A stretch of 52,392 bases of DNA, filler included, from Jimgerdemannia flammicorona (Eukaryota), in NCBI GenBank assembly GCA_003990765.1. It is 2 parts of 2 records of this genome, joined end to end, with 100 filler letters (N's around TTAATTAATTAA, not from the genome) between each part and the next. Parts side by side here need not be neighbours in the genome. Positions count along the whole stretch, not along the records: positions 1 to 26,150 come from RBNJ01000756.1; 1 more part is not named here. One strand, 5' to 3'. This document shows positions 224 to 23,989 of this stretch, one piece after another. The notes under the pieces are model-generated. The model did no database searches, was not told the DNA's origin, and saw only the letters and a list, made by a program, of their open reading frames with translations. Position 1 is the stretch's first letter, and each line of letters opens with the position of its first letter. A program made the translations under genes and the position numbers.

Positions 224-999
224 TGTAATAACTCTTATTTCTGTCTCTCTTTTGGATACTTAGAGAAATAAGATATTACTTAGAGACTTGGTATACAATA
301 TATACTAAGAAGTCTTTAGTTTGAGGAAGTACTTACTTGAAAGTAGTTGTAGTAACAGTGCTCTTCTTATCAATCTTGGTTGTAAGAAACTTGTTCTTTA
401 TTATACACAAACTGAATTTGTCTTGGAATTCAGGTTCAATGGATTTACTTAAGTCTTTGTGATTTATATACTGGTCTCAGTTCTGGTAGAAGTTAGCTAG
501 GCTTCTGGAGTTTAGTCAGAAATACTAGAGTCACTTAGATGTCATTATTAAGACTCAGGAGAATGTGTGTATAGAGGGGGGACTTGATTCTTATATCAAA
601 GATCAAACTAAAACTGCTTTATTTTGGATAGAAACTGGAGAGTATTTATACAAGTTGGTCTGTAATTTCTGACTAAATATAAGTGACTAATTTGGTAACT
701 ATAGTGAAGTTTGTAATCATAACATTTATCAGATAATTTGTGGCAAAAAATACTTTATAATCAGGACCTCAATTACTAGACAATGATCAGTATTGCTATG
801 GTACTGATTGCTACAGTACTGATTACTAGATATTTTTATTTGTATCATTCATATCATTTATTATATTTATTATTCATATATCATATGTCATACTTGATTA
901 TAACATCATCATTGGGTCATGTGATCTCTTGTCATCACATGCCATATCTCATCTATTTGCTCATTTATATGTCATATCTTACCTATTTGCTCTATTATA
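224..999 (-). repeat. 3' LTR of Ty3/Gypsy element A
   Basis: Reverse complement of the LTRs at 13377-14135 and 21697-22426. It ends TTATTACA at 224 and begins TATAATAGA (TG mutated to TA) at 999, directly after the polypurine tract AAGAGAAGAAGGA (1000-1012, minus strand). Confidence 0.9.
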
Positions 1000-3639
1000 T
1001 CCTTCTTCTCTTAAAAATCAATATTCTCATTAATTTGCAAATTGAGAACCAGGGAAGAGAAAGGTGAAAAATCTTTCTTAGTGTGGTTGTCTTCTCCTCT
1101 AGCAGCTGAAGAGGTGGTTGCTAATAGTTTGATATCTAGGATGAAGAAGTCAATGAGGTCTGTAAATGGTTCTTGAACTGGTATAGACATTGGAATAGGA
1201 GTTCTCCATCTAATGTTATTGAGACCATCCAAGTAGAATTCTTGGTCCTTATATCTAGAGATATCCATTCAGATAGGTAGTTCTTCAAAGAGGTCAGAGA
1301 GACCTTAGAGCCATTGGTCTGGATTGTCATTCAGGAGGAGGCTCTAGTAGGATTCAATGTCAGTGGACTTGAGGGTAATTCAGAAGTTGACTTCTTAGAC
1401 TACCTTGATCTCTAGCTTATCAATTTTGAGGAAGAAGAGGTTCTGGAAGTTCTTCAGTTATATGTAGTTAAGGTTGGAGATTGCAAAAGATATATGATAT
1501 ATAATTTAGTAGACCTTCCTGACTAGTCTTTACTTGTACCTGTCTAGGTTGGTCTAGCCTAAGACCTGGTTAGTGGGTAGGCCATTTGTATATTAAAGAA
1601 GTTGATGACCAATTTCATATTTATACCAGATTTCTAAATAGCTGGTAGTAAGGTAGACCCTTTGATGAGTTTATAGCAATCAAGGACATACTGTCCTAGG
1701 TCCTGGCTGGAGAGGTTAAGGGCCTCAGAGCAGTGGTTTCTTCCTTAGATAGTAACCTGAATATGTCCAAAAAGGTAGTCAACCTAGCTTGAGAGAAGCT
1801 GGCTATGGCAAATAGTTTGGTAGTAAGTAGTAGATATTCTTGTCTTATCTTTTCTTTTAGAGAGAGGAGGGAGATGAGAGTTGTAATATATTCTTACTCT
1901 GGGTATTTATACTATTCATTTGTCTGGTATGACTTCAATTCAATCATGTTTTCTAGCAGAATATATAACCTATTGCTATAAGTAGAGCATGTGCTGATCA
2001 TATGAGGAAAATCCTAATTTCAAGCTATCACTACTTATGGTTGTAGTTATACAGAGTTTACAGATCTTAGTTTTTTTTTTTGTCTGGTTGGTATATTTGC
2101 AAGGACTGGCCATTCTTGTCTAGGATGAGGTCTCTCATTATTGTAGCTAGGGGTTTGAATTTCTTGGAAATAGTATTTCTTATATTCTGAGACAATTTAT
2201 AGTAAAAATATCTATCATATAGATGAACTTAGATTGGTTTCAATATTGTTAGCTTTCCTAAGTTCCATATGAAGTATCTGTCATCATCTAGTAGAGATGA
2301 CACAGATGGCATGAAATGGAATTGTTCAAATATATTTTGCTACACCTTGCTGGATTGTTCTTTGCCAGAGTATCTTCTTGTTGATTAATATAGTATTTCT
2401 ATTTCTATAATATTCAGTATTGCATATTCCAGATAAATTTATAGTATCTTCTTTCTTTGCTATGTGCTCTTGGTTTTAGAGCTGCAGTTTCTTCCTCTGC
2501 TAGAGAGTGAGTATTTCCATGTAGTTCTGGAGAGTATCATATGCATTCTCTAGAGCTTCTTCTTTTTTCCAGGTAGCATCATGGGTGGGGTAACTCTTCC
2601 ACTTGATGAGGAAAAACTGCTTGACTATTTTGATATATTTGTAGATCTTGTGGTTAAGTATTTCCTTAATTTCAAATTCCTTATGATTATTAATCCTAAT
2701 TGGAGATGGTGGTGGAATTATACACTCAGGAAATGGATTCTCATGGTAGTCCACCAGTTGGCTGATATGGAATACCAGGTGTACTTGAATATTGTAAGGA
2801 AGTTGTAACTTGTAGTTAACTTCACTGACTTTTTCCTTAATCTTGTATGGTCTAATTCTTCTAGTATAGAGTTTCTTGGCTGGTTGTTATGCTAGAGTGT
2901 CTGGATGGAGATAGTCTGTTCTAAACATGACTATGTTACTGATATTATAGGAGATCTCTCTTTGTTTCAAGTTCACATACTTGGTCTAGTAGTTCTGTGC
3001 TTTTATGAGAATATCTCTTATCATTTGTATAAGGTCAGAAATGGTCTCAGCCAGATCTTAGGCTGCTGGGACAGCTGATTTTGCAGTAGTACTCAGGGTC
3101 CTTGGGTGTTGGCCATAGTTTAGAAAGAATGGAGTCTTCTTCATAGAGGTTTACTGGCTATTATTGTAGAAAAACTCAGCATGGGTTAGGTACTTGTCCC
3201 AATTATTCTGCTTATAACAGCAGAAGATGCCATTGAGGGTCCTATTAGTTCACTCAGTCTGTCCATCAGTCTGAAGGTGATAGATAGTAGAGAACTTCAG
3301 CTTAGTTCTATAGAGAGAGAAGAATGCCTTCCAGAAGTTACTTATAAACTTTATATCTCAGTCAGATACAATAGTGCTAGATATGCTATATAGTTTGAAT
3401 ACTTAGTTGAGGAAGATCTCAGCAATCTCTGGTACTATGGCAGTGGTCTTGGTGGGTGCAAAATGAGCTTGTTTGCCTAGGTGGTCTACAAATACTATAA
3501 TGGCATCCCATTCTGCCTTGGTCTTGAAGAGCTAGACAATGAAGTCTATTGCAATCTGATCCTAGTTGTGACTTAGAATAGGTAGGGGTTGTAGAAGTCC
3601 TGTAGGTAGCTTGTTACCACTTTTAAACCTTTGGCATAT
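1000..3639 (-). mobile_element. Gypsy chromovirus A, 3' internal part (integrase core/C-terminus, GPY motif, chromodomain, extra ORF3), pseudogenised
   Basis: ORF 2500-2754 (EFEIKEILNHK...FLIKWKSYPTHDATW) is a chromodomain. The region is colinear with the reverse complement of 19040-21696. ORF 1011-1268 matches the ORF3 C-terminus of element B. Confidence 0.9.
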
Positions 3640-4084
3640 TGTAATAGAACGAGGCATGACAAGCGATCATGTGACCCAGCAGTGATGATGTCATCATACG
3701 ATTGAGCACAACATATGAATAACGAATGATGAATGAACAAACAATGTGGAAAATGATGCAAAAAACGATATTTAGCTTATCTCTGATAATCAGTACCACA
3801 GCAATAGTTGCCATAGCAGCTGATCATTGCCTAGTAATTGAGGTCCTGATTACAAAGTTGTTTTTGCCAAAAACCACCTAATAAAGGTCACAGTCACAAA
3901 CCTCACTATAGTTACCAAATTAGTCATTTATATTTAGTCAGAAATTGCAGACCAACTTGTATAAATACCCCCCAGTTTCCATCTGAAATAAAGCAGTTTT
4001 AGTTCAGTCCTTGATACAAGAAATCAAGTCCCCCCCACACACATACATTCCCCTGAGTCTTAGTAATGACACCTAAGTGACTCT
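3366..4084 (+). repeat. Left copy of a ~720-bp direct duplication (element A integrase piece + first 445 bp of element B 5' LTR)
   Basis: Matches 13103-13806 (offset 9737 up to the LTR start 3640/13377, then a ~15-bp indel). It ends ACCTAAGTGACTCT immediately before the poly-T. Confidence 0.92.
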
Positions 4085-4829
4085 TTTTTTTTTTTTTTTT
4101 ATAAAACGAGTAGAAAATAGAGAAATAGTTTAGAGCAAGATGAGATGCTGTTACAGTGGATATGAAGATCAGTGGTAAAAGGTCAAGCAGTAGGAAACGA
4201 TAAGCTTTTGTAAATTTTCACAACAGAACAAAGAAGTGGAATAAAGTGTTTTCTGAAGCAAGGTGCAATAGATCTGCAATCCGCTCATAGCACCACAGTT
4301 TGCAATGGTCTTTATTCAAAATTGAGAACAAAGTTCAGGTAAACAAAGACATGGATCTAACCCCAGAATTCCAGAATTGGACAAGTGCATAAGTACCCAG
4401 ACCTTGCCCCGATCCAAACAAAGGTCTGAATTGGGCTTCATCGATCTACATACATGACAGGCCATTAAAAACCCAATATAGAAACAATCAGGAAAAGGTA
4501 CCAGTCATGTGATCTAATGTTACACAAACAATAAACAATGCTAAAAATGGAACTAGACCAATGACATATCACGTTTGGTCATGTGATTATTACTTATAGG
4601 TTTAAAACTCTAAAAATTGTTGGCACCCGAAGGTGCAGGCATCAGGCCTAGAGCCTCGTGACCGGAGCAGAGTAGAGCCATGGTACTGGAGCAAGCGAAG
4701 CGAGCAGAGGTAGACAGGTGTCACAGAGTGTAAGTATGCAGGCATCAGGCCTAGAGCCTCATGCTGGAGGTTGTCCAGCAATTTTTCACATTTTTAAACA
4801 TCGCACGGCACATATGAGCAGTGCAGCCT

Positions 4830-6836
4830 TCAAGGAGGACTTACAGTGAAGCTGGTGTTTGAGACGGCGTTAAGAATGCTAAAACCATTCTTCTGGGTGA
4901 TGATTGGTCATCGGGCAGTCACAGGGAAACCAAAATGAAGCAAAGTGGTATGTAGGGTCTTATTGGGCTGTTGATGTAGCCATCGGGCCATGTCGTATTG
5001 GATGACAAGTAATGGGGGAGGAAAAGCGGAGTGGGGGATGGGGGGGTGGGAAATAAGGAGAGGGGTGAGAAGTGAAGTTCAGACCTCAAGCCAATCAATC
5101 AAACTCAATTGAGTGGTTACAACATCAACAGGGTATCCTTTCCTGTAAACCAGGAACTCAGCCAATAACTGACAGTCATTAAGCCAATCACAGCGAGATG
5201 AGCAGAGTAGTGAAAGGTGGCAGGCCTCATTCACAATGCATAGATGAAGTGTCTTCCTAGGATGATTGTCCAACCAGTTGACAAACTGAGTACTACATGG
5301 GAATTTAGCGAAGCGGCCTATGCAGAATGGTGTGACTTGGATTTCCAGGTCTAAGTAATAGCACGGTCTGGCGGACAAGACTTCCCATTCAATACGATGA
5401 TGCGGAGGGTACACAGCAGCAAAGATCAAGGCCAAGTCCATAATCGCGGGTATAAAGACAATAAGATCATCAATATACTGGCAGAACTTTAGCCCAGCAG
5501 CGATGGCTCAGCTGAGCAGATGATTGGGTGCTTGCAAGGTATGTAATTCATGAGCAAAACCAATAAGATTGACAAGATCCGGAGCACAATTGGTGCCCAT
5601 AGCAATACCAGTCACTGAGCAGAAGGAACTGATGGTAGATGTAAATGTTATATGAGTTATGACTATGCAGACAAGACCGAGAATGGCTTCAAGTGGCAAA
5701 GAGCCAAGGGGGAAGGCCACTATCGATAAAAAGGTAAGGCAGTCAATGCACTCATCTAGTATGATCCTGGTGTAGAAGGTGGTGAAATCTCCAGTAGCAA
5801 TGTAGTTGCAATCTGACACATCTAGGTAATCCAATCGAACCAGCTGTAGTAGTTCTAACATATCACGTAGAGATGAATAACATGAGTAACCCACATTATG
5901 GCACAAATGGGCCGACCACAGATGGAGAAAGCGAGATAGGAAATGTGAAATCTCAGTTGTGTGAGAGTTAAAAGCACCAACGATAGGGTGCCATGCCACA
6001 TGTGCCCCTTTGTGTACCTTGGACAAAGTGTGAAACATGGGTAACTTGCAATCGTTGGGTTCCATGAGGTGTTCCCAAATCAGCATACAACTCTTGTCAC
6101 TGATGCAGAACTCAAGTAGACCAAGAAGGTCTAACCTCACTGATTCCTTAACATTATCAATTGTAGAGGGATCATTCATGTATGTAGGATCATAAAGGAG
6201 AGACCGAAGACCATCGAGATACAAGGCACGTGGAATTACAGCGAACTCCAGATTTTTGTTGGTAAGATAGACAGTAAAGTCATCATGAGTATGGACCCCT
6301 TTAAGAAGGCATTGGAACTTCTTCAGTACAAGTGCACTGGACATATTCGTCATGGGTCAGACAGCTTGATTCAAAGCAGCACTCATATGAAGCATAATTT
6401 GCATATTTTCCATACAGTGCGGCAGTTGCCATTTAGATGGCACCCAGGCAGAGATCTCCAGGATGTTGTCAGGATTACCCATAGAGGTCCAGAAGGTGGC
6501 AAGGTCAAGATGCCATTAGAATGATGACAATGAAATCGGGTCAATGGTACTATTCATTGATGCTGACCCAGAGAGAACAAACTTAGGGCCAAAGTTCAGT
6601 ATATATGTGAGCTCAGGGGTAAGCCAAGACAGAGGTATATCAGTAACAAAGCCCTCCTCGGTAAACATCCGAAACTGAGGGACGAAAAACTGACTCAAGC
6701 GAGAACCAGGAAGAGAAGACACAAAGGCAAAATCCTCAATTAGTGTTGAGGCCGCTACCCCACATAGAATGGGGACATCGGGGCCAAACCATGCTGCTGG
6801 GAAGTTGTATAAGACTTCCGGGCTGGGGACCTCTAG
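4830..6836 (-). pseudogene. PLE reverse transcriptase ORF2, copy 1 (in-frame stops, no GIY-YIG domain)
   Basis: Motifs LNFGPKF, T(D/N)KNL, PMFHTLSKVHK, HPIV, GDFTTFYTRI, GIAMGTNCAPDLVNL, QYIDDL, YLDL, and thumb NHP...LCSS...KGYP. The reading continues past the TGA at 5079 for about 80 aa (LLVIQY...PIITQKNGFSILN) and then meets the H module. Confidence 0.9.
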
Positions 6837-7993
6837 TTTTTTGATGCTAGAGGACAGACATCACCAGCATTATACCAAACAACATGATGCTTGGCAGCAG
6901 TACACTTGTTGCACTGTGGCACAAATACCCTGGCAGCACTCTTAGATGAGCAGCTTGAAGTTGACGAGTGGCTGGTCACAGTAGAAGCAGAAGAAATGGA
7001 TGGGGAAGGCAAGACCTTATGCGCTCGCTTGACCCCTTTTACAGAACCCTCTGTCAAGGCAGGGGCTAGGGGGCAAGGACCCCAGTGCACCTTTGTAGGC
7101 ACACCGAGGCATCCAGAACAGCTGCAGCAGTTTAGCATGGCAGAGGCTGAAGTCACACTCACCACCTTGGCCTTTCCTACAGCCCCCACAGGCATAGCAG
7201 TAGAGGGTGGGGGGGTGGGGACACTCTTTTTCAGTCAGGTGGAACTGGTGGCAGTAGAAGCAAATATGCATTTTGTACCTGGAGTAATGATCTCGGGGTA
7301 CTTCTCAAGCTCCTCAACCATGGCTTTGTAGGTGGTGGCAGAAATCCCATCTTGTAGAGAGGAGGACGCAGGAACTGTTGGGTGGATGGTGGCAGCAGTG
7401 GCTTTAGCAGCGGTGGTGACGGCAAGATGGCGAGATTGACACATGATAACATCAAAACCACAGAGCAGAAACAAGTTTGTCTTGACTTGGTCAGTGGCAG
7501 CAAGGGTAGCAATATTCTTGCTAACCCCTTGAGTGATATCAATGGATAACTCAAAGAAATTGTGGGCATCGGAAGACCCACTCATGGCTTTGTCGATTTT
7601 AGCATACTGGTCCTTAGTATGCTGGGCGGTGGCATCTTGATCAGAGATGGCAGCCTCGATCATGGCAGTGGCACAGCACTTAGCTTCTGCCGAAGTAGTA
7701 GTAAGGGTGGTGGCATACTGTTCCTCTGGGAGGAGGGCAATCGCAGCAGAGACCTTCTTGGAAGGAGTAAACTTCCAATCAGCAACTTGGGCTCTCAAAA
7801 AGTCAGCACAGCGCTCATGTGCAGTGGTAACCTCGAGAGTACGGAGCACTCTAGTATAAGCAGCATGGAAGGCAGCAGGGACCTCGACAAGCGAAGCAGT
7901 CAAGAAGATGGCCAGATCGTCGAAGTTTGCCAAATCAGTGAAGGAAGCTTTGGGGATAGCAGCATCGCCATCTACATTCATATTGTCTGTCAT
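6833..7993 (-). pseudogene. PLE ORF1, copy 1 (~386 aa; Ala-rich, probably helical N-terminus, basic Ser/Pro-rich C-terminus)
   Basis: ORFs 7235-7993 and 6833-7195 share one frame separated by a TGA that is CGA in copy 2. Homologous to 9211-10371. Confidence 0.85.
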
Positions 7994-8502
7994 GTTGTGT
8001 ATTATAAAATGAGTAGAAAATAGAGGAATAGTTTAGAGTGAGATGAGATGCTGTTATGGTGGATATGAAGATTGGCAGTAAAAGGTCAAGCAGTAGGAAA
8101 TGATAAGCTTTTGTGAATTTTCATGATGGAACAAAGAAGCAGAATAAAGTGTTTTCCAAAGCAAGGTGCAATAGATCTGCAACCTGCTCATAGCACTGCA
8201 GTTTGTGATGGTCTTTATTCAAAATTGAGAACAAAGTTTGGGTAAACAAAGACACAGATCTAACCCTGGAATTCCAGAATCGGACAGGTGCATAAGTACT
8301 CAGACCTTGCCCCAATCCAAACAAAGGTCTGAATCGGGCTTTGTCGATCTATACATGTGACAGGCCATTAAAAACCTGATATAGAAACAATTGGGAAAAG
8401 GTACCGGTCACATGATCTAATGTTATACAAACAATAAACAATGCTAAAAATGGAACTAGATCAATGACATATCACATGTGGTCACATGATTGTCACTTAT
8501 AG

Positions 8503-8702
8503 GTTTAAAAACCTAAAAATTATTGGTACCCGAAGGCGCAGGCATCAGGCCTAGAGCCTCGTGACCAGAGCGGAGTAGAGCCTCGGCACCAGAGTAAGCA
8601 AAGCAAGCAGAGGTAGACAGGTGTCACAGAGCATAGGTATGCAGGCATCAGGCCTAGAGCCTCATGCTGGAGGTTGTCTGGTGATTTTTCATGTTTTTAA
8701 AC
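8503..8702. repeat. H module: loop of the giant palindrome, bounded by inverted repeats GTTTAAAAAC (8503-8512) and GTTTTTAAAC (8693-8702)
   Basis: Also present at 4600-4799 and, inverted, at 12403-12602. It contains the direct repeat GCAGGCATCAGGCCTAGAGCCTC twice and mini-hairpin motifs CCCGAAGG and GCGAAGC. Confidence 0.9.
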
Positions 8703-9210
8703 CTATAAGTGACAATCACGTGACCACACATGATATGTCATTGGTCTAGTTCCGTTTTTAGCATTGTTTATTGTTTGTGTAACATTAGATCACATGACTG
8801 GTACCTTTTCCCAATTGTTTCTATATTGGGTTTTTAATGGCCCATCACATGTATAGATCAACAGAGCCTGATTCAGACCTTTGTTTAGATTGGGGCAAGG
8901 TCCGGGTACTTATGCACCTGTCCGATTCTGGAATTCCGGAGTTAGATCTGTGTCTTTGTTTACCCAAAATTTGTTCTCAATTTTGAATAAAGACCATTAC
9001 AAACTGCAGTGCCATGAGCAGGTTGCAGATCTATTGCACCTTGCTTCAGAAAACACTTTATTCCGCTTCTTGTTCCATCGTGAAAATTCATAAAAGCTTA
9101 TCATTTCCTACTGCTTGACCTTTTACCGCTGATCTTCATATCCACCGTAACAGTATCTTATCTCACTCTAAACTATTCCTCTATTTTCTACTCATTTTAT
9201 AATACACAAT

Positions 9211-10371
9211 ATGACAGACAATATGAATATAGATGGCAATGCTGCTGTCCCCAAAGCTTCCTTCACTGATTTGGCGAACTTCGATGACCTGGCCATCTTC
9301 TTGACCACTTCACTTGTCGAGGTCCCTGCTGCCTTCTATGCTGCTTGCACCGGGGTGCTCCATACTCTCAAGGTTGCCGCTGTGCATGAGTGCCGTGCTG
9401 ACTTTTTGAGAGCCCAAGTTGCTGATTGGAAGTTTACTCCTTCCAAGAAGGTCTCTGCTGTGATCGCCCTCCTCTCAGAGGAACAGCGTGCTGCCACCCT
9501 TACTACTGCTTCTGCAGAAGCTAAGTACCGTACCACTGCCACAATTGAGGCTGCTGTCTCCGATCAAGATGCTGCCACCTAACATGCTAAGGACCAGCAT
9601 GCTAAAATTGATAAAGCCATGGGTGGGTCTTCTGATGTCTACAATTTCTTTGGGTTATCCATTGATATCACTCAAGGGGTTAGCAAGAATATTGCTACCC
9701 TCACTGCCACTGACCGAGCCAAGACAAACTTATTTCTGCTCTGTGGTTTTGACATTGTCGTACATCAATCTTGCTATCTTGCCACTGCCACTGCTGCTAA
9801 AGCCGCTGCCACCACTGTCCACCCGACAGTCCCTGCATCCTCCTCCTTGCAAGATGGGATTTCCGCCGCCACCCACAAAGCCATGGTTGAGGAGCTTAAG
9901 AAGCACCCCAAGATTGTTACTCTGGATGCAAAATGCATGTTTGCTTCTGCTGCCGCCAGTTCTGCCCGACCAAAAAAGAGTGTCTCCACCCCCCCACCCT
10001 CTACCACCGTGCTTGTGGGGGCTGCGGGAAAGGCCAAGGTGGTGAGTGTGACTTTGGCCTCTGCTGCACCAAACTGCTACAGCTGTTCTGAACATCTCGG
10101 TGTGCCTATGAAGGCACACCAGGGTCCTTGTCCCCTAGCCCCTGCCTCAACAGAGGGTTCTGTAAAAGGGGTCAAGTGAGTGCATAAGGCCTCACCTTCC
10201 CCATCCATTTCTTCCACTTCTATCATGACCAGCTGCTTGTCGACTTCCAGCTGCTCATCTAAGAGCGCTGCCAGGGCATTTGTGCTGCAGTGCAACAAGT
10301 GTACTGCCACCAAGCATCATGTTGTTTGGCATAATGCTGGTGATGTCTGTTCTCTAGCATCAAAAAACTAG
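9211..10371 (+). pseudogene. PLE ORF1, copy 2
   Basis: ORFs 9211-9582, 9619-10179 and 10180-10371 lie in one frame, split by TAA/TGA codons explicable as C-to-T changes. It begins MTDNMNIDGNAAVPKASFTDL and ends ASKN*. Confidence 0.85.
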
Positions 10372-12372
10372 AGATCCCCAGCCTGGAAGTCTTATATGAC
10401 TTCCCAGCAGCATGGTTTGGCCCCAATGTCCCCATTCCACATAGAGTAGTGGCCTCAACACCAATTGAGGATTTTGCCTTCGTGTCTTCTCTTCCTGGTT
10501 CTCACTTAAGTCAGTTTTTCATCCCTCGGTTTCAGATGTTTACTAAGGAGGGCTTTGTTACTGATATACCTCTACCTTGGCTTACCCCCAAGCTCACGTA
10601 TATGCTGAACTTTGGCCCTAAGTTTGTTCTCTCCAGGTCGGCATCAATGAACAGTACCATTGATCCAATTTCATTATCGTCGTTCCAATGGCGTCTCAAC
10701 CTTGCCACCTTCTGGACCTCTATGGGTAATCCCGACAACATCCCAGAGATCTCTGCCTGGGTGCCATCTAAATGGCGACCACTGCACTATATGGAAAATA
10801 TGCAAATTATACTCCATATGAGTACCACTTTGAATCAAGCTGTCTGACCCATGACAAATGTGTCCGGCATGCTTGTACCGAAGAAGTTCTGATGCCTTCT
10901 TAAAGGGGTCCATACTCATGATGACTTTACTGTCTGTCTTACTGACAAAAATCTGAGGTTCGCCATAATTCTGCATACCTTGTATCTTGACAGTCTTCAG
11001 TTCCTCCTTCATGATCCTGCATATGTGAATAATCTCTCTATGATTGATAACGTTAAGGAATCAGTGAGGTTAGACCTTCTTGGTCTACTTGAGTTCTGCA
11101 TCGGCGACAAGAGTTATATACTGATTTGGGAACACCTCATAGAATCCAATGATTATAAGTTACCTGTATTTCACACTTTGCCCAAGGTATACAAAGGGGT
11201 ACATATGGCATAGCGCCCTATCGTTTGTGCTTTTAACTCTCCCATGACCAAGATTTCACATTTCCTATCTCACTTTCTCCACCTGTGGTCAGCCTATTTG
11301 CACCATAATGTGGGTTACTTGTATTATTCACCTCTACGTGATACATTAGAACTGCTATAGCTAGTTTGATTGGATCACCTAGACATGTCAGATTGCAACT
11401 ACGTCACTACTGGAGATTTTGCCATCTTCTACACCAGAATCACACTAGATGAGTGCATCAACTGCCTTACCTTTTTATCAATAGTGGCCTTTCCCCTTGG
11501 CTCTTTGCCACTAGAAGCTGTTCTCGGCCTTGTCTGCATAGTCATGACACATATGACATTTATATCTGCCATCAGTTCCTTCCGCTCAGTGACTGGTATT
11601 GCTATGGGCACCAATTGTGCTCTGGATCTTGCCAATCTTGTTGGTTTTGCTCATAAATTGCATGCCTTGCAAGCACCCAATCATCTGCTCAGCCGAGCCA
11701 TTGCTGCCAGGCTAAAGTTCTACCAGTATATTGATGATCTTATTGTCTTTACACCCATGATTATGGACTTGACCTCAATCTTTGCTGCTGTATACCCTCC
11801 GCATCATCATATCAAATGGGAAGTCTTGTCTGCCAGACCATGCCATTACTTAGACCTGGAAATCCGAGTTGCACTGTTCCACACAGACCGCTTTGCCAAA
11901 TTCCCACAAAGTACTCAGTTTGTCGACTGGTTGAGCAATCATCCTAGGAAGATGCTTCATCTATGTATTGTAAATGAGGCCCACTGCCTTTCACTACTCT
12001 GCTCATCTTGCCGTGATTGGCTTAATGAGTGTTGGTCATTGGCCAAGTTCCTGGTTCACAGGAAAGGATACCCTATTGATGTTGTAACTACTCAATTGAG
12101 TTTGGTTGATTGGCTTGAGGTCTGAACTTTACTTCTCACCTCCCCTTATTTCCCACCCCCCCATCCTCCACTCCACTTTTCCTCCCCCATTACTTGTTGT
12201 CTAATACAACATGGCCCAATGGCTACATCAATAGCCCGACAAGACCCTACATACTGCTTTGCTTCGTTTTGGTTTCCCTGCAACTGCCCAATGACCAATC
12301 ATCACCTGGAAGAATGGTTTTACCATTCTTAATACCATCTCAAACACCAGCTTCACTCTAAGTCCTCCTTGA
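10368..12372 (+). pseudogene. PLE reverse transcriptase ORF2, copy 2
   Basis: LNFGPKF, TDKNL, LPKVYK, GDFAIFYTRI, GIAMGTNCALDLANL, FYQYIDDL, YLDL, SNHP, KGYP. It lies in the -1 frame relative to ORF1. Confidence 0.9.
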
Positions 12373-13102
12373 AGACCACACTGCTCATACGTGCCGTGCA
12401 ATGTTTAAAAATGTGAAAAATCGCTGGACAACCTCTGGCATGAGACTCTAGGCCTGACGCCTGTGTATCTATGCTCCATGATGTCTGTCTATCTCCACTC
12501 GCTTCGCTCGCTCCAGTGCCAAGGCTCTACTCTGCTCTGGTCACAAGGCTCTAGACCTGATACCTGCACCTTTGGGTGCTGACAATTTTTAGGGTTTTAA
12601 ACCTAAAAGTGACAATCACGTGACCACACATGATATGTCATTGGTCTAGTTCCATTTTTAGCATTGTTTATTGTTTGTATAATATTAGATCACGTGACTG
12701 GTATCTTTTCCCAATTGTTTCTATATTGGATTTTTAATGGCCCATCATGTATGTAGATCGATGAAGCCTAATTCAGACCTTTGTTTGGATCGGGGCAAGG
12801 TCCAGGTACTTATGCACCTGTCCGATTCTGGAATTCTGGGGTTAGATCCATGTCTTTGTTTACTCAAACTTTGTTCTCAATTTTGAATAAAGACCATCAC
12901 AAACTGCAGTGCCATGAGCAGGTTGCAGATCTATTGCACCTTGCTTTGGAAAACACTTTATTCCACTTCTTTGTTCCATCGTGAAAATTTACAAAAGCTT
13001 ATCATTTCCTACTGCTTGACCTTTTACTGCCAATCTTCATATCTGCCATAACAGCATCTCATCTTGCTCTAAACTATTCCTCTATTTTCTACTTGTTTTA
13101 TA

Positions 13103-13806
13103 ATATAATAGTGCTAGACATGCTATATAGTTTGAATACTTAGTTGAGGAAGATCTCAGCAATCTCTGGTGCTGTGGCAGTGGTCTTGATGGGTGCAAAA
13201 TGAGCTTGTTTGCCTAGGTGGTCTACAAATACTACAATGGCATTCCATTCTGCCTTGGTCTTGAAGAGCTAGACAATGAAGTCTATTGCAATCTGATCCT
13301 AGTTGTGACTTAGAATAGGTAGGGGTTGCAGAAGTCCTGTAGGTAGCTTGTTACTACTTTTAAACCTTTGGTATATTGTAATAGAACAAGGCGCAACAAG
13401 CGATCACATGACCCAGCAGTGATGACATCATCATATGATCAAGCATGACATATGAATAATGAATGATGTGGAAAATGACACGAAAAATGATATTTAGCTT
13501 ATCCCTAACAATCAGCACCACAGCAACAGTTGCCATAGCAGCTGATCATTGCCTAGTAATTGAGGTCCTGATCACAAAGTTGTTTTTGCCAAAAACCACC
13601 TGACAAAGGTCATGGTCACAAACCTCACTATAGTTACCAAATTAGTCACTCATATTTAGTCAGAAATTGCAGACCAACTTGTATAAATACCCCCCAGTTT
13701 TCATCCAAAATAAAGCAGTTTTAGTTCAGTCCTTGATATAAGAAATCAAGTCCCCCCCACACACATACATTCCCCTGAGTCTTAGTAATGACACCTAAGT
13801 GACTCT
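13103..13806 (+). repeat. Right copy of the ~720-bp direct duplication
   Basis: Matches 3366-4084 and continues seamlessly into the rest of the element B LTR. Confidence 0.92.
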
Positions 13807-14135
13807 AGTGTTTCTGACTAAACTCCAGAAGCCTAGCTAACTTCTGCCAGAACTGAGACCAGTATATAAATCCTGAAAGACTTAAGTAAACCCATTGAAC
13901 CTGAATTCTAAGGCAAATTCAGTCTGTGCACAGCAAAGAACAAGACCCTTGAAAGATAGGGCACACAAGAGAAAGATCTTTGAAACAGAAGGCACTACCA
14001 CTATAACTACTTATAAGCGAGCGCTTCCTTAACTGAAGGCTTCTTGGTATACATCATGTACTAAGTCTCTAAGTAATAGTCTACTTCCCTAATTATCCAA
14101 TGGATAAGAGAGGGGTAGAAGTGAGAGTTATTACA
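13377..14135 (+). repeat. 5' LTR of element B
   Basis: Runs TGTAATAG...GTTATTACA with terminal inverted repeat TGTAATA/TATTACA. TATA-like TATATAAA near 13863. Confidence 0.93.
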
Positions 14136-14138
14136 ACT

Positions 14139-14150
14139 TGGTAGCAGCAG
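14139..14150 (+). promoter_or_regulatory. Primer-binding site, probably for initiator tRNA-Met
   Basis: TGGTAGCAGCAG lies 3 nt (ACT) after the LTR end. TGGTAGC is complementary to the 3' end of tRNA-iMet, as in Ty1/Ty3. Confidence 0.7.
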
Positions 14151-14221
14151 ATTACCAGCCAAGAAGATACTAAAGAACACACTCCTGAAGTTGGAACAAT
14201 ACCAACCTTGGACAGGAGTAA

Positions 14222-16665
14222 ACCCCAGAACCAACTGTGGATCCTCAAACCAGAGCCAGAGAAGCCCTTGCCATTAGGACCAGGTGATACCAGGAAACAA
14301 CAGACCCAAGGACCCACCAGCTTGTAATTGACCAGGCTTATAAGGATCTATACCAGGCCTTTAGGACTTACCACCCAGGACTTAGGAATATTGTCAGCCA
14401 CCATAGGTTCTATGAACTCCTCCGAGGACACATTGGAACCACTAGGACCCCAGAATCCACTGCTGCAGCCACCCAGGATTTTTTAGATTATATCTCACCC
14501 CCTGCTGCAAGAGAAGCAGCTGCTGAGTGGATTACCTCTGACAGATATCACTATACCCCTACCAAGACCTCCCTCTACTATAGGCTAGTTGTATACTATG
14601 CCTCTGCCATAACCAGGTACGAGAATGAGCAAGCAGGCCAACTATCCCCTACTGCTGAACAAGAAGCAGGCCCATCTACTTAGCCAGAAACTGATATCCT
14701 CTTTGAAGGACCTAGTCAGTATGAGGACACACTATCTCATCAGAGAAGGGAGTCAGATGAAGACTCTATAGGATACCAGTCTGATGATAGTCAACAAAGA
14801 ACAGCAGGTCTAAGAATTTACCAAAGAACTACAGGTTAAGAAGATCAGACCCCAGAACTAACCCAGCCACCAATACAGAGGTTTGGTTTACCCTCCCTCA
14901 TAGGACTCTTTGATCTGATATCTGAGAATCAAGTAACCTCAAGTCATACAGCACTATAACCCCATCAAGCAGAACAATCTTCAGGAGAATCTACCCCAAC
15001 AGGCCCACCACCAAAAGTCAACACAATGGTAGATGTCAACATTGCAGCACTGACTACCCAGCTAGCAGCACTAGCAGAGATAGTAGGACAGATTGCTGAA
15101 CAGAACAAACCAACCAAGACCTTATGAATTCCAACATTCAGTGGAAAGAACAGTGACATTGAAAACCTCATCAATGTAGTTGATACAGGCTACTGAGCAA
15201 ACCAATGGAATGACAACTAAGTGTCTATAGGAATGCTCACCAACAACCAGAATAGCACCCTTCAACAGCTGTTTGCCATATCAGCAGCACAAGTGGAAAC
15301 AGTAGCCACATTCTTCACTGGAACAGCAGCCAAATTTTGGCAAACCTTGGAACAACACCCAGTAACCTGGGAAGACCACCCTCAAGTCAATGGACAAGTA
15401 TCTGCCAACAATAGACTAGGTTGGGATGACTATGAAGCAGGCCCAGGACTCAAGACCTTGCTACTGACTAAATTCCAAAATGCAGCCTATATACAAGAAA
15501 CTTGGAACAAACTGTCTCAGATGAAGTTCTACAAGAGCAGTGAGGAGGATCTAGAGACCTTTGCCACCAGAATAGATGCCTATCTCAAAACCATTGGACT
15601 TACCTATCAGGAGAACAACTTGGCCATCAATGATACTAGAGCCAACCATCTTTTTGCAGCCCTACAAGACTGGCTCACCCAGAAGATCAAGGAACAAGGT
15701 CTTCCCCAAGGATGTCCCCACTACTCATGGTACTTTGCCCAAGTACAAAGAAGAGCTGGTGAAATCCTTGCTGTACAGGCCCCACGAAATCAAGAATACA
15801 AAAAGGATAACCAAGATAGAAGGAATCCTACCAGGAGAAATGACCAAAGGAAGGACCAAAGATATGATCAAAGGAATGATCAAAGGAACCAGTGAAACCC
15901 CAGAGGACCCAGAGCTCTCACCAAGGATGAAAAGAAGCAGCTCTGCAAAAAGGGATTGTGCTTCATCTGCAAGAAGACAGGACACATCTCAGTCAAATGC
16001 CCTGAGAAGAGAAACAGATCAGGCAAACCCAGTAACCAGAACATTACTGTTATTGGAGAAGGCACAGAGAAGAAGAACTCTGAGAATATCATCAAAGTAT
16101 AGAAGATATAGTACAAGGCTACCATCCCCACTAAGGCCCACTCAACTGATGCTGGATATGACCTCTACAGCAGTCAAGATCTCACCATTCCACCAAGTAC
16201 CAATGCTACAGTGTGAACAGGAATTGCAATGCAAGCTCCCAAAGAAACATACATCTGCCTTGCTGAGTAAAGCAGCCTAGCCAAAGAATTCAACATTGGG
16301 CTAGGAGGAGGAGTAGTTGACCAAGGATTTACTGGTGAAATCCATGTCATCTTGCGAAATTTTGGAGATACATTATTTGAAGTCAAAGTAGGCCAAAGAA
16401 TTGCCCAGACAATTATTGAAGAAATCTGTCAAGATCTCACCATTGAAGAAGTCCCTGAACTCTCCCAGATAGATCATGGCAAGAAAGGGTTTGGATCTAC
16501 CAACAAACCTCCTAGTCAAAAGGTCACTACTATGAAGGAAGATGATGAAAACTGGTATAAGAGAATTGCAGATGGTTATGTACTATGTGGACAATGCCCT
16601 CATTCTATCTGAATGTACTACATGGAATATATTGGTAAATGCCATACATGCCTCTCCAAAGTTTT
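14222..16665 (+). pseudogene. gag: Element B ORF1: long N-terminal extension, Gag (IPTFSG, CCHC knuckle), dUTPase, CPH mini-domain
   Basis: One frame throughout, with scattered C-to-T type stops. Knuckle LCFICKKTGHISVKC at about 15956-16000. dUTPase motifs DAGYDL, SSLA, GVVDQGFTGEI, RIAQ, GKKGFGST at about 16090-16502. Confidence 0.85.
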
Positions 16666-16669
16666 CTGA

Positions 16670-19600
16670 GAAATGCCAAGTCCAACAGACTGAGGAACCC
16701 AAACAAGACAACCCTCCTTGTGAAGGATGGAGAGAAACTGACTTTGAGGAGACTGATAGCAATTGGGACAATAATGAGAATGAAGAGCTCAACACCATCA
16801 AGAAGGAGGACAGTTGCATTAAGTTTACAGGTCAAGTCCACAGACAGAATATCAATGTCTTGCTTGATAGTGATACTACTGAAAACTATATCAGCACCAA
16901 GACTGCCAAGAGGATTGGAGCCCAAAGCAGACCAGCCACCAAGAAAAGAAGTGTTATCTTTAGTGATGGAAAAACTGCACCATTGAACAAGATCTGCAAG
17001 GATCTCTTGCTCAAGATTGGCAAATATCAAGAGAAGTTGGACCTCAGCATTGTAGACCTCCCAGGACAAGATATTATTCTAGGAAAAGCCTGGTTGACCC
17101 AGTATAACCCAGACATCAACTGGAGAACCAACGAGATTAACCTGACCCATGAAGGCAGAAAGATCACCCTGATACCCCAGAAAGGTACCAATTACCAAGG
17201 AATTGAAATCATCTCCACCATTCAAATGAAGAGACTCTCTCGAAAAAAGAGAAACACCTATTTCATCTGTACAGTACAAGAAGTCACTGAAGCTACAAGT
17301 AGCCCAATTCCAACAGAAGCTCAAGAACTGTTTAAAGAATTCCAAGATGTATTCCAAGACCCCTAAGGACTTCCACTCAAGTATCAAATCCAATATGGGA
17401 TTGATCTTATTCCAGGATCTGAACCCCCATATAAGAGTATCTATCAACTGGCCCAACCTGAGCTCAAGACCCTCAAGGATGAGTTGACCAAACTACTGGC
17501 CCAAGGATATATTGAACCCAGCTGCTCTCCATTTGGAGCCCCTATTCTATTTGTCAAGAAGAAGGATGGTTCTCTGCAAATGTGTATTGACTACAGAGCC
17601 CTCAACAAGATCATCATCAAGAACCGATATGTCTTGCCCAGGATTGATGAGTTACTACACCAAATCTTCAAGGCCAAGACCTTTTCTCTACTGGACTTGC
17701 AAAATGGCTACCACCAGATTCTCATTGATGAGAAGAACATTGAGAAGACAGCTTTCCAAATACAGTTTGGACACTACCAGTTCCAGGTCATGCCTTTTGG
17801 ATTGACCAATGCACCAGCAACATTCCAGTACCTGATGAACGACATCTTTAGACCACTTCTCAATATCTGTGTCCTTGTATATATTGATGATATACTAATC
17901 TACAGCAAAACAGTAGAGCTACACTACTACACCCATCTCAGACAAGTACTGACCCTCCTGTGAGAACACCAGCTCTATGCCAAGATGAGCAAATGCAAGT
18001 TCTATCAAGACCAGATTGAGTATCTAGGACACATTATCTCTGCTGAAGGTATCAATGTAGACCCCCGAAAGGTATCAGCCCTTAAGGATATTCCTATTCC
18101 CACTACCCTCAAGCTACTCCAGCACTTTCTGGGTATTGCCAGTTACTACTGAAGGTTTATCCAAGAATACTCTGCTATTGCAGCTCTATTGACCAGCCTG
18201 GCCCGCAAAGAAGTGAACATCAAAACTGAATGGACCCCTGAATACACCCTAGCTATAGACTATCTCAAGAGACTCCTTACTGAGGCCCCAGTGCTAATTG
18301 CACCTGACCCCACCAGGCTATTCATGCTGACCACAGATGCCTCTGACATTGCTATTGGAGCAGTGCTCAGCCAAGAAGACCACCTAGTGGCCTACCTTTC
18401 CCAAAAGCTCAAGCCAGCTGAGACCTGGTACACTACCCATGAGAAGAAACTCCTGGCCATTGTTATTGCATTTCAAGAATAGCACCACTTCCTCCTAGGA
18501 CAACCATTTGTAGCCTACACTGATCACTATGCCCTGCAGTATATTCATACATAGCCCATGCTAACCCACAGACAAGCCCGCTGGATGGAAATCATTGCCA
18601 ACTTTGATATGGAAATCAAGTATATCTCAGGCAAAACCAACTGTGTGGCTGATGGTTTCTCCAGATACATAGAAGATGAACTTGTCTTCATGGTCAAAAT
18701 AATTGGAGATCTGACCGAGATGATCAAGGATGGCTACAGCAGGACAGCCCCCTGACGAAATTTCTCCAATTCTGCCAAGACCCAGAAGCCGAGATCCCAG
18801 AACTCATGAGTCAAATGTCCAAGAGATTCACTTACCGTGATGGACTTATCTACAGAGACTATGATAGAGTAGTTGTACCCAACAATGATACTCTGTGACT
18901 CAAGATCATGCAGGAACTCCATGATACCCCTACAGCAGGACACTTTGGTTTCAAAAAGATCTATAACCTCCTCTCAAGAGAGTTCTACTGGCCAAAGATG
19001 ACTAAGGACATCAAAGACTTTGTGGCTTCTTGTGAGATATGTCAAAGGTTCAAAAGTGGTAATAAGCTACCAGCAGGACTCTTACAACCCTTGCCTATCC
19101 TAAGTCACAACTGGGATCAGATTGCAATGGACTTTATTGTCCAACTCCCCAAGACCAAGGCAGGATGGGATGCTATTGTAGTATTCATGGACTGCCTAAG
19201 CAAACAAGCCCACTTTGCACCCACCAAGACCACCACTACAGTACCAGAGATTGCTGAGATTTTTCTCAATCAAGTATTCAGGCTACATGGCATGCTTAGT
19301 ACTATTATATCTGACTGAGATACCAAGTTTACAAGTAACTTCTGGAAGGCATTCTTCTCTCTCCATGGAACTAAGCTGAAGTTCTCTACTGCCTACCACC
19401 CTCAGACTGATGGCCAAACCAAGCAAACCAATAGGACTCTCAAACAGATGCTTAGCATCTTCTGCTGTTACAAGCAAAATGATTGAGACAAGTATCTAGC
19501 CTATGCCGAGTTTGCCTACAACAACAGTCAGCAAACCTCTACAAAGAAGACTCCATTCTTCCTGAACCATGGTCAACACCCAAGGACCCTGAGTACTACT

Positions 19601-20209
19601 GTGAAATCAGCAGTCCCAGTAGTCCAAGATCTGGCCAAGACCATTTCTGACCTTACCTGAATGACAAGAGACACTCTTATAGAAGCACAAGACTACCTGA
19701 CCAAGTATGCAAACTTGAAGCAAAGAGAAGCCTCCTACAATATTGGTGACATGGTTATGCTTAGAACAGACCACCTCCACCCAGATACCCTAGCACAACA
19801 ACCAGCCAAGAAACTCTGTGCTAGAAGAATTGGACCATATAAGATTGTGGAAAAAATCAGTGAAGTCAACTACAAGTTGCAACTTCCCCACAATATCTGA
19901 GTATACCCAGTATTCCATATCAGCCAACTAGTGGACTACTATGAGAACCTATTCCCTGAGAATACAGTCCCACCACCACCCCCAATTAGGATCAATGATC
20001 ATGAGGAATTTGAAATTGAGGAAGTACTTGACCACAAGGTCCACAAACATCCCAAAACAGTCAAGTGGTTTTTCCTGATCAAGTGAAAGGGTTACCCCAC
20101 CCATGACACCACCTGGGAAAAAGAAGAAGCTCTGAAGAATACACATGAAGCCCTCCAGGACTACATGGAAACACTCACACTCCAGCAAAGGAAGGAACTA
20201 CAGCTCTAA
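16670..20209 (+). pseudogene. pol: Element B pol: aspartic protease, RT, RNase H, integrase, chromodomain
   Basis: VLLDSD (DSG mutated), SPFGAPILFVKKKDGSLQMCIDYRALN, VMPFGLTNAPATFQ, VYIDD, TDASDIAIGAVL, HHCC (HDTPTAGH...CEIC), MDFI, IGPY, EFEIEEVLDH. Confidence 0.93.
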
Positions 20210-20857
20210 AGAATTGAAGCACATAGTGAGCAGAAGGATACTACATATCTTATCTCAAATATATTATACCAAACATTGCAGCAAAAAGGAACACTATGGA
20301 TAACTAACAAGAGGATGCTCTAGCAAAAGGACAATCTAGTACAGTACAGCAAAATGCATTTGAACAACTCTATTTCATGCCATCTGTATCATCTCCACTG
20401 GATGATGACAGATACTTCATATGGAACTTAGGAAAGCTGACAATGTCAAAACTAGTCTAAGTCTATCCACGTGACAGATATTGTTACTAGGAATTGCCTC
20501 AGATTATAAAAAAAGTCTATTTCCAAGAGGTTTGAACCCCCAGCCACAATAATGGGAGCCCTTGCCCTAGAAAAGGATGGCCAGTCCTCACAAATGTGCC
20601 AACTAGACAAAAAAAAAGAGGACTAAGACCTGTTAACCCTGTGTAACCACAACTACAAGTGATGATACCTTTGGAAATCAGAATTTTCTCATGTAACCAA
20701 CACATGCCCCACTTATAGCAACAGGTCACACATTTTGCAGAAAAGCATAACTGAAAGAAGATCACACTAGATAGGTGAACAAGTATAAATACCCAAGGCA
20801 AGAATATCCCACAACTCTTATCCCTCTTGCCTTACAAAGAAAAAGAACAAGACAAGA

Positions 20858-21685
20858 ATGCCTGCTACCCACTACCAAACTGCCCACTATAGCCAGCCCC
20901 TCCCAAGCCAGGTTGACCACCTCTTTGGATACATCCAGGTTGCTATCCAAGGAAGGAACCACCACTCAGAGGCCCTTAACCTCTCTAGCCCGGACCCAGG
21001 ACAATATGTTCTTGACTGCTATGAACTCATCGAAAGAGCCTACCTTGCTACCAGCCACCTAGAGATCTGGCATTAATATGAGATTGGCCATCAACTCCTC
21101 TAATGGGCAAAGGACCTGTCCACTGACTAAGTCTCTGACTGGACCCACCTGGACAGACATGAGCAAAGACTTGCTAAGAAGGTCTATCAAATCATGTACC
21201 ATGCACCCTTTGCAATCCCCAACCTCAACTATGTCCAACTGAAGGATTTCCAGAACCTCTCTTTTCCTGAGGTTGACAAACTAGAGATCAAGGTAGCCCA
21301 AGAAGCCAACTTCTGGATTTCTCTCAAGTCTACTGACTGCAAACCCTACTAGAGCCCCCTCCTGAATGATAACCCAGATCAATGGCTCTAAGGCCTTTCC
21401 GACCTCTTTGAAGGACCCTCTATCCGAATGGATATCCTCAGGCATGAGGATCAAGAACCCTACTTGGATGGTCTCAACTGCATCAGATAGAGAACCCCTA
21501 CACCAGTACCTATTTCAATGCAAGAACCATTTACAGACCTCATTGACTTCTCCACCCTGGAAAGCGAGCCATCAGCAACCACCCCCCCTGCCACTGAAGA
21601 AGATGGCAACAACCCTGAGGAAGATTCTCCACCTTTCTCTCTCTTGGTTCTCAATTTCCGAATCAACGAGAATGTTGATTTCTAA
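20858..21685 (+). pseudogene. Element B extra ORF3 (~275 aa, unknown function) between pol and the 3' LTR
   Basis: The ATG at 20858 and TAA at 21683-21685 are in one frame with a few in-frame stops. The C-terminus (QEPFTDLIDF...LVLNFRINENVDF) is shared with element A ORF 1011-1268. Confidence 0.7.
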
Positions 21686-21696
21686 GGAGAGAAGGA

Positions 21697-23333: not shown

Positions 23334-23989
23334 CTAAACAAAGAGAGTTTGTAGGGGGCTGTCTGATTAGAGACAGGACAGCTTGAGGATATGGTATCAT
23401 TAAGAAAGCTTGTACTGCTAAGGTGGATGAATGACTGGTTTTCTTAGATTAAGAGAAGACCTATGATAGAGTCTAATAAGTGTGGTTAAAAGGAGTACTA
23501 AGGTACATTGAGATCTCTCCTGGGATCTAGCAGGTCTTGGTCAGCCTGCTAGATGGGAGTCAGGCAGTAATTATAGTAATTGGGTACAGAGGGGTTTCAT
23601 TCCCTCTGGGCAGAGGAGTGCTACAGGGGGATTCACTGTCACGGATTCTATATATACTATCCCTAGAGTCTCTTTTGGATAGGATATGGCAAAAGGTGGG
23701 AGGGTTGGATATTCTGGGAGTTAATTGGAAGGTAGGGGCCTTTACTGATGATATAGTAGTTGGGCTAGAGTTAGTTGAGGATGTTACAGTACTGAAAGAT
23801 ACAGTAGAGTAGTATGAGAGGTTCTTAGGTGCCAAGCTCAACTGGCATAAGTATGAGACTTTAGTATTAGAAGGAGGGATAATAGGTGGGGATATCATTA
23901 GAATAATTATCTCTGTAGGAAAGTCTGTGCACTATCTGGGAATCTACTTCTTGATGAATAGTTCTTTGCTACTATACAGATAGTGGGAG
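23334..23989 (+). mobile_element. Decayed L1/Tx1-like LINE RT fragment (possibly the continuation of 12-223)
   Basis: FVGGCLIRD, LVFLD*EKTYDRV, RGVLQGDSLS, GAFTDD, HYLGI. Confidence 0.85.

Follow-up and report, generated by a model that had tools for sequence, protein, structure and literature searches.

Head-to-head copies of a putatively nuclease-less Penelope-like element, framed by a 0.7-kb target duplication, in Jimgerdemannia flammicorona

How Penelope-like elements (PLEs) copy themselves is poorly understood, and the tandem and inverted structures of their insertions are the main clue. In the excerpts available of PMC8557442, PLE insertions often show an inverted, 5'-truncated copy beside the upstream pseudo-long terminal repeat (pseudo-LTR), described as 'complex tandem/inverted insertions', and a hammerhead motif is placed in the pseudo-LTR of all PLE clades except Naiad and most Chlamys. 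The accessible parts of PMC3846280 describe Penelope of Adineta vaga, in which the inverted pseudo-LTR overlaps the direct one by 15 base pairs (bp), the junctions are palindromic and target duplications measure 8-10 bp; self-priming is proposed there for the head-to-head copies. Endonuclease-deficient PLEs of fungi and protists are said in those same parts not to share the inverted organisation, and to prime on chromosome ends or double-strand breaks (PMC3846280). Here we analyze 52,392 nucleotides (nt) of Jimgerdemannia flammicorona (assembly GCA_003990765.1), a stretch we call the window, in which 2 parts of 2 records are joined with 100 filler letters between them; coordinates count along the whole stretch, and positions 1-26,150 are RBNJ01000756.1. 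The window holds two full-length, head-to-head copies, or arms, of a PLE that appears to lack a nuclease, and its family is known here from this single, decayed locus. Searches of open-access text turned up no nuclease-less PLE for which an inverted dimer of full length is described. An earlier note on this DNA knew of no complete inverted dimer that turns at a dedicated hairpin module. That claim to novelty is overstated: the portions available of PMC8557442 record frequent inverted, 5'-truncated copies, and those of PMC3846280 read palindromes at head-to-head junctions of an endonuclease-bearing Penelope as self-priming.

The locus shares its architecture with Pen2a of A. vaga and related endonuclease-bearing (EN+) PLEs, which, in the available text of PMC3846280 and PMC8557442, also have direct pseudo-LTRs on each copy. 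As in Pen2a, the inverted copy abuts and overlaps the upstream pseudo-LTR (by 15 nt in Pen2a and 10 nt here), a palindrome lies at the inverted junction, and a target duplication frames the whole insert (PMC3846280, in part). In the same excerpts the inverted part of EN+ PLEs amounts to a single pseudo-LTR or a short stretch truncated at its 5' end, whereas here it is full length minus 181-190 nt of one pseudo-LTR; their target duplications span 8-10 nt (PMC3846280), whereas ours spans ~0.7 kilobases (kb); and they encode a GIY-YIG nuclease, whereas here no nuclease is seen and a poly(A) tail stands at one end. PMC11167929, available in excerpt, is a biochemical study of a nuclease-bearing PLE. 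Athena of rotifers and Coprina of fungi and some protists, plants and animals, as far as the accessible descriptions go, resemble our element in having a DKN-type motif and a thumb and no nuclease. Athena and Coprina-1_Alen also have two open reading frames (ORFs), which in Coprina-1_Alen are flanked by direct repeats; the excerpts of PMC13159263 place the two-ORF Coprina with its direct flanking repeats at telomeres. Unlike our element, Athena and Coprina are described there as occupying chromosome ends, bordered by telomeric repeats and bearing hammerhead motifs; ours lies inside another repeat as an inverted dimer with a poly(A) tail, and neither telomeric repeats nor an Rfam match to a hammerhead were found for it.

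The core of the locus is a pair of inverted arms. A repeat search and self-BLAST of the window, which served for both inverted and direct repeats, paired 4099-8520 with 13103-8684 at 88.3% identity over 4427 columns. Under the strict limits adopted for counts (4102-8512 on the minus strand and 8693-13101 on the plus strand; 4411 and 4409 nt), 3895 of 4408 aligned columns are identical (88.36%), 499 differ by a transition and 14 by a transversion; 3 gap events take up 4 columns. At the centre, a perfect 26-nt stem encloses a 180-nt loop of element sequence in left-arm orientation, which matches 4617-4799 directly and 12403-12585 in inverted form. The earlier note had described full-length, reverse-complementary arms around a single 180-bp loop. 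This layout is accurate, except that the arms are not near-identical: they differ at 513 of 4408 columns, a divergence of 11.6%. The ORF1 start codons lie where that note placed them, at 7993 (minus strand) and 9211 (plus strand). The two ends of the dimer are unequal. A run of 17 T residues (T17) at the left end adjoins host base 4084, and no A run was seen at the outer end of the right arm (13102), in agreement with the claim that only the left end carries a poly(A) tail.

Each arm bears two direct terminal repeats of 0.5-0.7 kb, the pseudo-LTRs characteristic of PLEs, with the arms disposed head to head (Table 1; the right arm's 5' copy spans 8693-9204). A complete pseudo-LTR consists of a segment H (~180 nt) followed by a segment R (~510 nt). 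The 5' pseudo-LTR of the right arm begins at R, and the arms therefore overlap by 10 nt, at 8693-8702. Both outer H-R junctions read AG(G/A)GTTTTAAACC and the inner one reads AGGTTTTTAAACC; the earlier note had read these motifs correctly.

An imperfect inverted repeat of 17 nt (76-82% complementary), with an 8-nt perfect core, GTTTAAAA, flanks H in both outer pseudo-LTRs. This is one of 2 inverted pairs per 731-nt pseudo-LTR, a yield not above a rough chance estimate, and as RNA the H segment folds no better than shuffled sequence (z = -0.56). Homology of the left 5' pseudo-LTR to the outer pseudo-LTRs ends exactly at the inverted-repeat motif, and the last stop common to both ORF2 frames, a TAA (4796-4794 and 12406-12408), sits within it. 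Because the repeat is at chance level, H has no special fold, and both the homology and the ORF2 frame stop at the motif, we read the turn as a 10-nt palindromic microhomology that was used, and not demonstrably as a dedicated hairpin module. The pseudo-LTR alignment thus bears out the proposal that the structure turns at a short inverted repeat of the element itself; the further proposal of a dedicated hairpin module fails on the fold, the 8-nt core and the chance yield, and H as a structured module was rejected. H also contains a 26-27-nt direct repeat spaced 103 nt (8538-8563 and 8641-8666; also 4634-4660 and 4737-4763) and a second repeat of 19-20 nt spaced 24 nt; no ribozyme core was recognised.

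The dimer is itself bracketed by a direct repeat of host sequence. The 719 nt to the left of the tail reappear in direct orientation just past the end of the right arm; over 704 aligned columns, the two flank copies differ by 44 transitions, 0 transversions and one 15-nt indel. Both belong to an older repeat, 'Y', whose second copy in the window is uninterrupted at both junction points; from 13807 onward, the sequence continues as this paralogue does past its equivalent of 4084. Given the direct flank copies and the empty-site paralogue, a target A-B-C therefore became A-B-T17-(left arm)-H-(right arm)-B-C. Hence, the insertion appears, from this comparison of junctions, to be framed by a target duplication of ~0.7 kb, a feature absent from the earlier description of the locus. 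Repeat Y has terminal inverted repeats of ~0.6-0.7 kb (223-825 against 3640-4084 plus 13807-14135), and no long ORF was seen in it. Its second copy, at 19037-22427, is ~80% identical and lies between 0.9-kb inverted repeats (18129-19040 and 22428-23333).

Tail and flanks bear on whether the palindrome arose without retrotransposition, either by DNA-level rearrangement of a resident monomer (replication fold-back or template switching) or as an assembly artefact, explanations that we find scarcely credible. Fold-back inversion at short inverted repeats is a known replication error, and long-read chimeras can create false palindromes. A DNA-only fold-back would yield three copies or an inverted flank, whereas the locus has two arms and a direct flank that leads at once into the remainder of the target. 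The right arm offers no template for T17 and itself lacks a tail; neither arm can therefore be a simple DNA copy of its partner, end included. The fold-back of a resident monomer was rejected on this tail and flank geometry. An artefact would give identical arms, whereas those seen here differ at 513 columns in a biological pattern, and it was rejected on that ground.

How the arms differ speaks to their common origin. For the decay spectra, C or G was taken as the older state at differing sites, and sites were classed by their 3' neighbour. Between the arms, the differing fraction of inferred ancestral cytosines was 329/475 for CpG, 104/623 for CpA, 59/583 for CpC and 6/525 for CpT; between the flank copies it was 22/30, 17/112, 4/62 and 1/93, respectively. 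Pseudo-LTR pairs within each arm gave context values similar to those of the arms. The CpG class is near saturation, and it is the agreement of the unsaturated CpA and CpC classes that carries the same-age argument. The transition/transversion ratio of the arms is ~36. Differing codons in the ORF2 frame number 142 non-synonymous and 59 synonymous, a pattern of neutral decay, and 12 of the 19 stops in the ORF1 and ORF2 frames occur in one arm only, the other arm having a sense codon one or two transitions away. Judged by these spectra, the arms began as one sequence that decayed by C-to-T change, mostly at CpG. More broadly, both arms, the four pseudo-LTRs and the two 0.7-kb flank copies began identical and underwent the same context-specific C-to-T decay; they were apparently made together.

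As fractions, the spectrum of the arms is CpG 0.69 >> CpA 0.17 ~ CpC 0.10 >> CpT 0.01, with no 5'-neighbour preference. The CpG observed/expected ratio of the window is 0.48. All repeat pairs in the window are transition-biased, with ratios from 5 to 44 (including 991-3639 / 19037-21705 and 18129-19040 / 22428-23333); for the other repeats the ratio is 5 to 17. The pattern resembles methylation-driven or repeat-triggered deamination.

The relations of the four pseudo-LTRs come close to a star, with a slight excess of grouping by position: among sites with a 2:2 pattern, 17 sort by position, 6 by arm and 9 crosswise. These relations weigh on the proposal that the same active element inserted twice, close in time, the second copy landing head to head against the 5' end of its predecessor, with an unrelated tandem duplication of the 0.7-kb flank. 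Nuclease-less elements are thought to use breaks (PMC3846280, in the parts available), a palindromic or fragile site could be hit twice, and the level of decay alone cannot date events if mutation is triggered by repeats. We nonetheless hold two insertions to be highly improbable: the dimer occupies precisely the point where the two flank copies meet, the overlap of the arms is precisely the 10-nt motif, only 6 of 32 2:2 patterns sort by arm, and arms, pseudo-LTRs and flanks share their decay in the unsaturated classes. Taken together, a single insertion event very probably made the whole structure. The earlier note had likewise argued for one event, and the 14 transversions, 3 indel events and star-like terminal repeats uphold it.

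We identified the element through its second reading frame. The ORF2 frame, translated through its stops, served as the query (P0001). A phmmer search against 1.84 billion representatives returned 641 relatives of its reverse transcriptase (RT) at E <= 1e-3, with 43% identity and E = 9.5e-59 for the top hit; a word-index protein search found 2. In the RT alignment, the K..HK, P.I, D..Y, G.AMG and DD columns are invariant and KNL is near-invariant, and the DKN-type motif reads TDKNL in the right arm and TNKNL in the left. A Pfam scan of 33 phmmer hits, in batches of 13 and 20, found RVT_1 followed by a C-terminal GIY-YIG in 7 (0/13 and 7/20), and P0001 and the single ORFs gave only a weak RVT_1 match. 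The RT is Penelope-like, as judged from its PLE-type motifs and from relatives in which the RT is followed by a C-terminal GIY-YIG. The RT of PLEs is the sister group of telomerase RT; solved structures, searched by profile, yielded only generic RTs (Drt3a at 1.4e-5, a group II intron RT and a retron RT) and no telomerase. As a lead only, the nearest clusters in a protein atlas are unnamed eukaryotic proteins, some with DUF8422 or RVT_1. The first stop common to both ORF1 frames lies ~387 codons from the ATG, and ORF1 had no Pfam match and no homologue in a word-index protein search.

A nuclease was sought with Pfam (E <= 1) at the ends of the element, in 9 read-through frames that take in 1.3 kb at the 3' end of each arm and 1.4 kb at the 5' end of the left one, and neither GIY-YIG nor any other Pfam family was found in them. 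The ORF2 frame ends ~95 codons past the thumb. In a quick RT tree of 42 rows, the query falls in a 5-row clade with P0004-P0007 at a Shimodaira-Hasegawa-like approximate likelihood ratio test (SH-aLRT) support of 99, and the rows with GIY-YIG lie elsewhere. Pfam found no GIY-YIG in clade mates P0004 and P0005; P0006 and P0007 were unscanned and end inside the RT. The source record of P0007, at 32% identity, gives it as a protein of Racocetra fulgida. From its predicted products, the element appears to be without a nuclease, as endonuclease-deficient PLEs are and canonical EN+ PLEs are not; the latter (Penelope/Poseidon, Neptune, Nematis and Naiad/Chlamys) have a GIY-YIG endonuclease on the N- or C-terminal side of the RT. 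The earlier identification as an endonuclease-less PLE therefore stands, on the RT motifs, the 641 relatives and the 9 frames free of GIY-YIG.

Searches for other PLE hallmarks gave no matches. No Rfam hammerhead reached the gathering score in the window and none reached E <= 5 within 3300-13900; given the heavy mutation of both copies and the minimal form of hammerheads in PLEs, one may have escaped recognition. Among metagenome relatives, 0 of 20 loci had one at the gathering score and 0 of 12 at E <= 0.5, and no Rfam family of any kind matched the window or the relatives. The telomeric motif (TTAGGG)2, the only one tried, had 0 matches with at most 1 mismatch in the 52-kb window, a result that concerns this copy only, and no short-period terminal array was found in the window. 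Where Athena and Coprina have reverse-complement telomeric repeats at the 3' end, this element ends in poly(A) on the left arm and is bare on the right.

Distant RT relatives (21-40% identity) also occur on 32 metagenome contigs (L001-L032), mostly of 3-4 kb. In 13 of 23 loci examined, the two ends of the contig are direct repeats of each other, ~110-127 nt long and 100% identical, and L016:1-11146 consists of four perfect tandem units of 3196 nt; these nuclease-less RT elements therefore assemble as tandem arrays or circles. An inverted repeat of at least 60 nt was found in 0 of the 23, which, the contigs being short and the relatives distant, says little about the family.

How, then, was the dimer made? 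We tentatively favor reading the locus as the fossil of a single retrotransposition of an endonuclease-deficient PLE into an older repeat, by two-ended priming and not by snap-back. Nothing in the right arm could have templated T17, and that arm lacks an A run; therefore, the left arm is a primary copy, made from a polyadenylated RNA, and the right arm does not reproduce the left complementary DNA (cDNA) in full. Priming on poly(A) at host base 4084, which the earlier note had proposed, is borne out for the left arm by the position of T17, and the tail is joined to that base without microhomology. Past the inner pseudo-LTR the element continues with TTTTATAATACACAAC, and this has ATA(C/T)A in common with the right-junction target, cagATA(C/T)AATAG (shared letters at 3366-3370); the microhomology at that junction would be 3-5 nt for a read-through RNA against 1 nt for the tailed form.

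Under two-ended priming, two host 3'-hydroxyl ends on opposite strands, 719 nt apart, would each prime reverse transcription. As the element has no nuclease, these ends would have to pre-exist, as nicks, a staggered break or replication intermediates. The plus-strand end would prime on the poly(A) tail, and the minus-strand end, paired through those 3-5 nt, on an RNA that was read through or exceeded unit length. Extension of both cDNAs beyond one unit would yield the pseudo-LTRs. Being of the same polarity, their 3' ends could pair only at the chance inverted repeat GTTTAAAAAC / GTTTTTAAAC, 180 nt apart, and would be joined at this 10-nt motif by microhomology annealing and fill-in. Fill-in of the two 719-nt overhangs would duplicate the target, and the copy would then be silenced and decay mainly by CpG deamination.

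L1 twin priming, reportedly described by Ostertag and Kazazian in 2001, offers a parallel. The excerpts of PMC11702581 cover L1 twin priming with microhomology as well as cDNA hairpin foldbacks. As proposed here, so in L1 both 3' ends of a staggered target prime, the cDNAs are joined through microhomology, and an inversion and a target duplication result (PMC11702581, in part). In contrast to our locus, with its two whole copies, L1 copies one RNA once, so that the 5' part is inverted relative to the 3' part, and its target duplications of 12-18 nt arise at its own nicks, as far as that account extends.

Snap-back self-priming, the mechanism put forward in the earlier note, we judge unlikely. 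In this route, the host 3' end at 4084 would prime on poly(A) and the cDNA would pass through the element and a second R and H; its 3' end, GTTTTTAAAC, would fold onto the complementary motif 180 nt upstream and copy itself into the right arm; and, in an ending that we add to the earlier proposal, a switch near the start of the tail to host template 719 nt behind the priming site, as in replication template switching, would duplicate the flank. The junction lies exactly at the element's inverted repeat with its perfect 26-nt central stem, the loop H has the orientation of the tailed, first arm as this route predicts, and a single free 3' end suffices, which suits a nuclease-less element. Self-priming has also been proposed from palindromes at head-to-head junctions of an endonuclease-bearing Penelope (PMC3846280), and self-annealing cDNA hairpins for L1 foldbacks (PMC11702581), each in the parts of those papers available. 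But the right arm lacks an A run even though its supposed template starts with T17, the return to the host rests on 1 nt of microhomology where an independent read-through RNA offers 3-5 nt, the flanking repeat of a monomer does not exceed chance expectation and H folds in no particular way, and two template switches are required. Snap-back predicted an A run on the right, then an inverted flank or nothing; the locus has no tail there and a direct 0.7-kb flank. Both routes use the 10-nt motif and both account for H in the loop. Two-ended, or twin, priming fits slightly better because of the missing right tail, the direct flank duplication and the right-junction microhomology. The hairpin model is possible as the less well supported route, and we see no new kind of mechanism here.

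Several points weigh against two-ended priming and the single origin that it presumes. One old copy cannot separate this route from snap-back with certainty. The right-junction microhomology is short (3-5 nt), and its length depends on an ambiguous C/T site and on the assumption that the template was read through. For an element without a nuclease, it is awkward to require strand separation and a pair of 3' ends that already exist at a spacing of exactly 719 nt. The transversion at alignment column 226, which makes the left inner H/R junction an exact complement of the opposite side, is explained by neither two-ended priming nor snap-back; under the former, it needs mismatch correction or a prior template difference. 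Lastly, repeat-triggered mutation acting once on all duplicates then present would also equalise decay, so that 'same age' is strong but not proof.

Table 1. Positions of the dimer, its terminal repeats, reading frames and flanking host sequence in the window
Feature	Position	Strand	Remarks
Left arm, full element copy (3' terminal repeat, ORF2, ORF1, 5' terminal repeat)	4102-8512	-	Repeat search, self-BLAST
Right arm; 5' pseudo-LTR without H, ORF1 from 9211, ORF2 frame ~10482-12408, no tail	8693-13102	+	
T17 on the plus strand, poly(A) tail of the left arm	4085-4101	-	Absent from the paralogous empty site and the right arm end
Left half of the 26-nt stem	8487-8512		Core GTTTAAAAAC at 8503-8512
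Right half of the 26-nt stem	8693-8718		Core GTTTTTAAAC at 8693-8702
Central 180-nt loop, H segment in left-arm orientation	8513-8692	-	Self-BLAST, pseudo-LTR alignment
Left arm 3' pseudo-LTR, H and R, ~700 nt	4102-4799	-	88.3% direct repeat of 8002-8702; four-way alignment
Left arm 5' pseudo-LTR, R and H	8002-8702	-	Final 10 nt are also the start of the right arm
Right arm 3' pseudo-LTR	12403-13102	+	Self-BLAST, four-way alignment
ORF1 frame, left arm	6833-7993	-	Open for 252 codons up to a stop; sense codon at that place in the right arm
ORF2 frame, left arm; RT core and thumb, DKN-type motif, several in-frame stops, no frameshift	4794-6722	-	
ORF2 frame, right arm; 2-nt deletion near 12138	~10482-12408	+	
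Left copy of the duplicated target, part of older repeat Y	3366-4084		Direct repeat of 13103-13806
Right copy of the duplicated target	13103-13806		Self-BLAST, junction alignments
Paralogous empty site, left junction	22040-22160		Runs straight across the equivalent of 4084
Paralogous uninterrupted sequence, right junction (equivalent of 3366)	19250-19370	-	Junction comparison

The window as a whole is crowded with nested transposable elements; apart from an ORF with a SAM domain (41099-41563), it shows no clear host gene. Retroelement remains at 14136-18128 include a retroviral-type aspartic protease ORF (16542-17366), and those at 23907-25754 include an RT of the long interspersed nuclear element (LINE) type (24162-24881) whose relatives have an AP-endonuclease domain. 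A search with a LINE-type RT ORF of the window gave no match above 40% identity. A zinc-knuckle, dUTPase and RT series spans 47532-50078. A satellite array of period ~177 nt (~15 copies, 70% match) occupies 35814-38447, and homopolymers of 73 T and 25 A lie at 31205-31277 and 34578-34602.

The architecture of the locus is itself known. What is new here is its occurrence as full-length head-to-head copies, in a nuclease-less lineage, at an internal site and with a 0.7-kb target duplication. A bolder generalisation, which we regard as doubtful, is that a nuclease-less PLE lineage inserts inside chromosomes, besides telomeres, through a free or nascent 3' end and completes insertion by a cDNA hairpin that snaps back on a short inverted repeat of the element, producing full-length palindromic dimers and sub-kilobase target duplications. 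If true, this locus would be the first full-length fossil of a self-priming intermediate that has been proposed, but never shown, for PLEs, and the pseudo-LTR and inverted organisation would predate, or be independent of, the GIY-YIG nuclease. The head-to-head pseudo-LTR layout occurs here in a nuclease-less lineage. The locus argues that this architecture stems from the RT and its template, through the use of any available 3' end and joining by microhomology, and apparently not from the GIY-YIG nuclease, and it supplies concrete junction features for comparison with younger copies.

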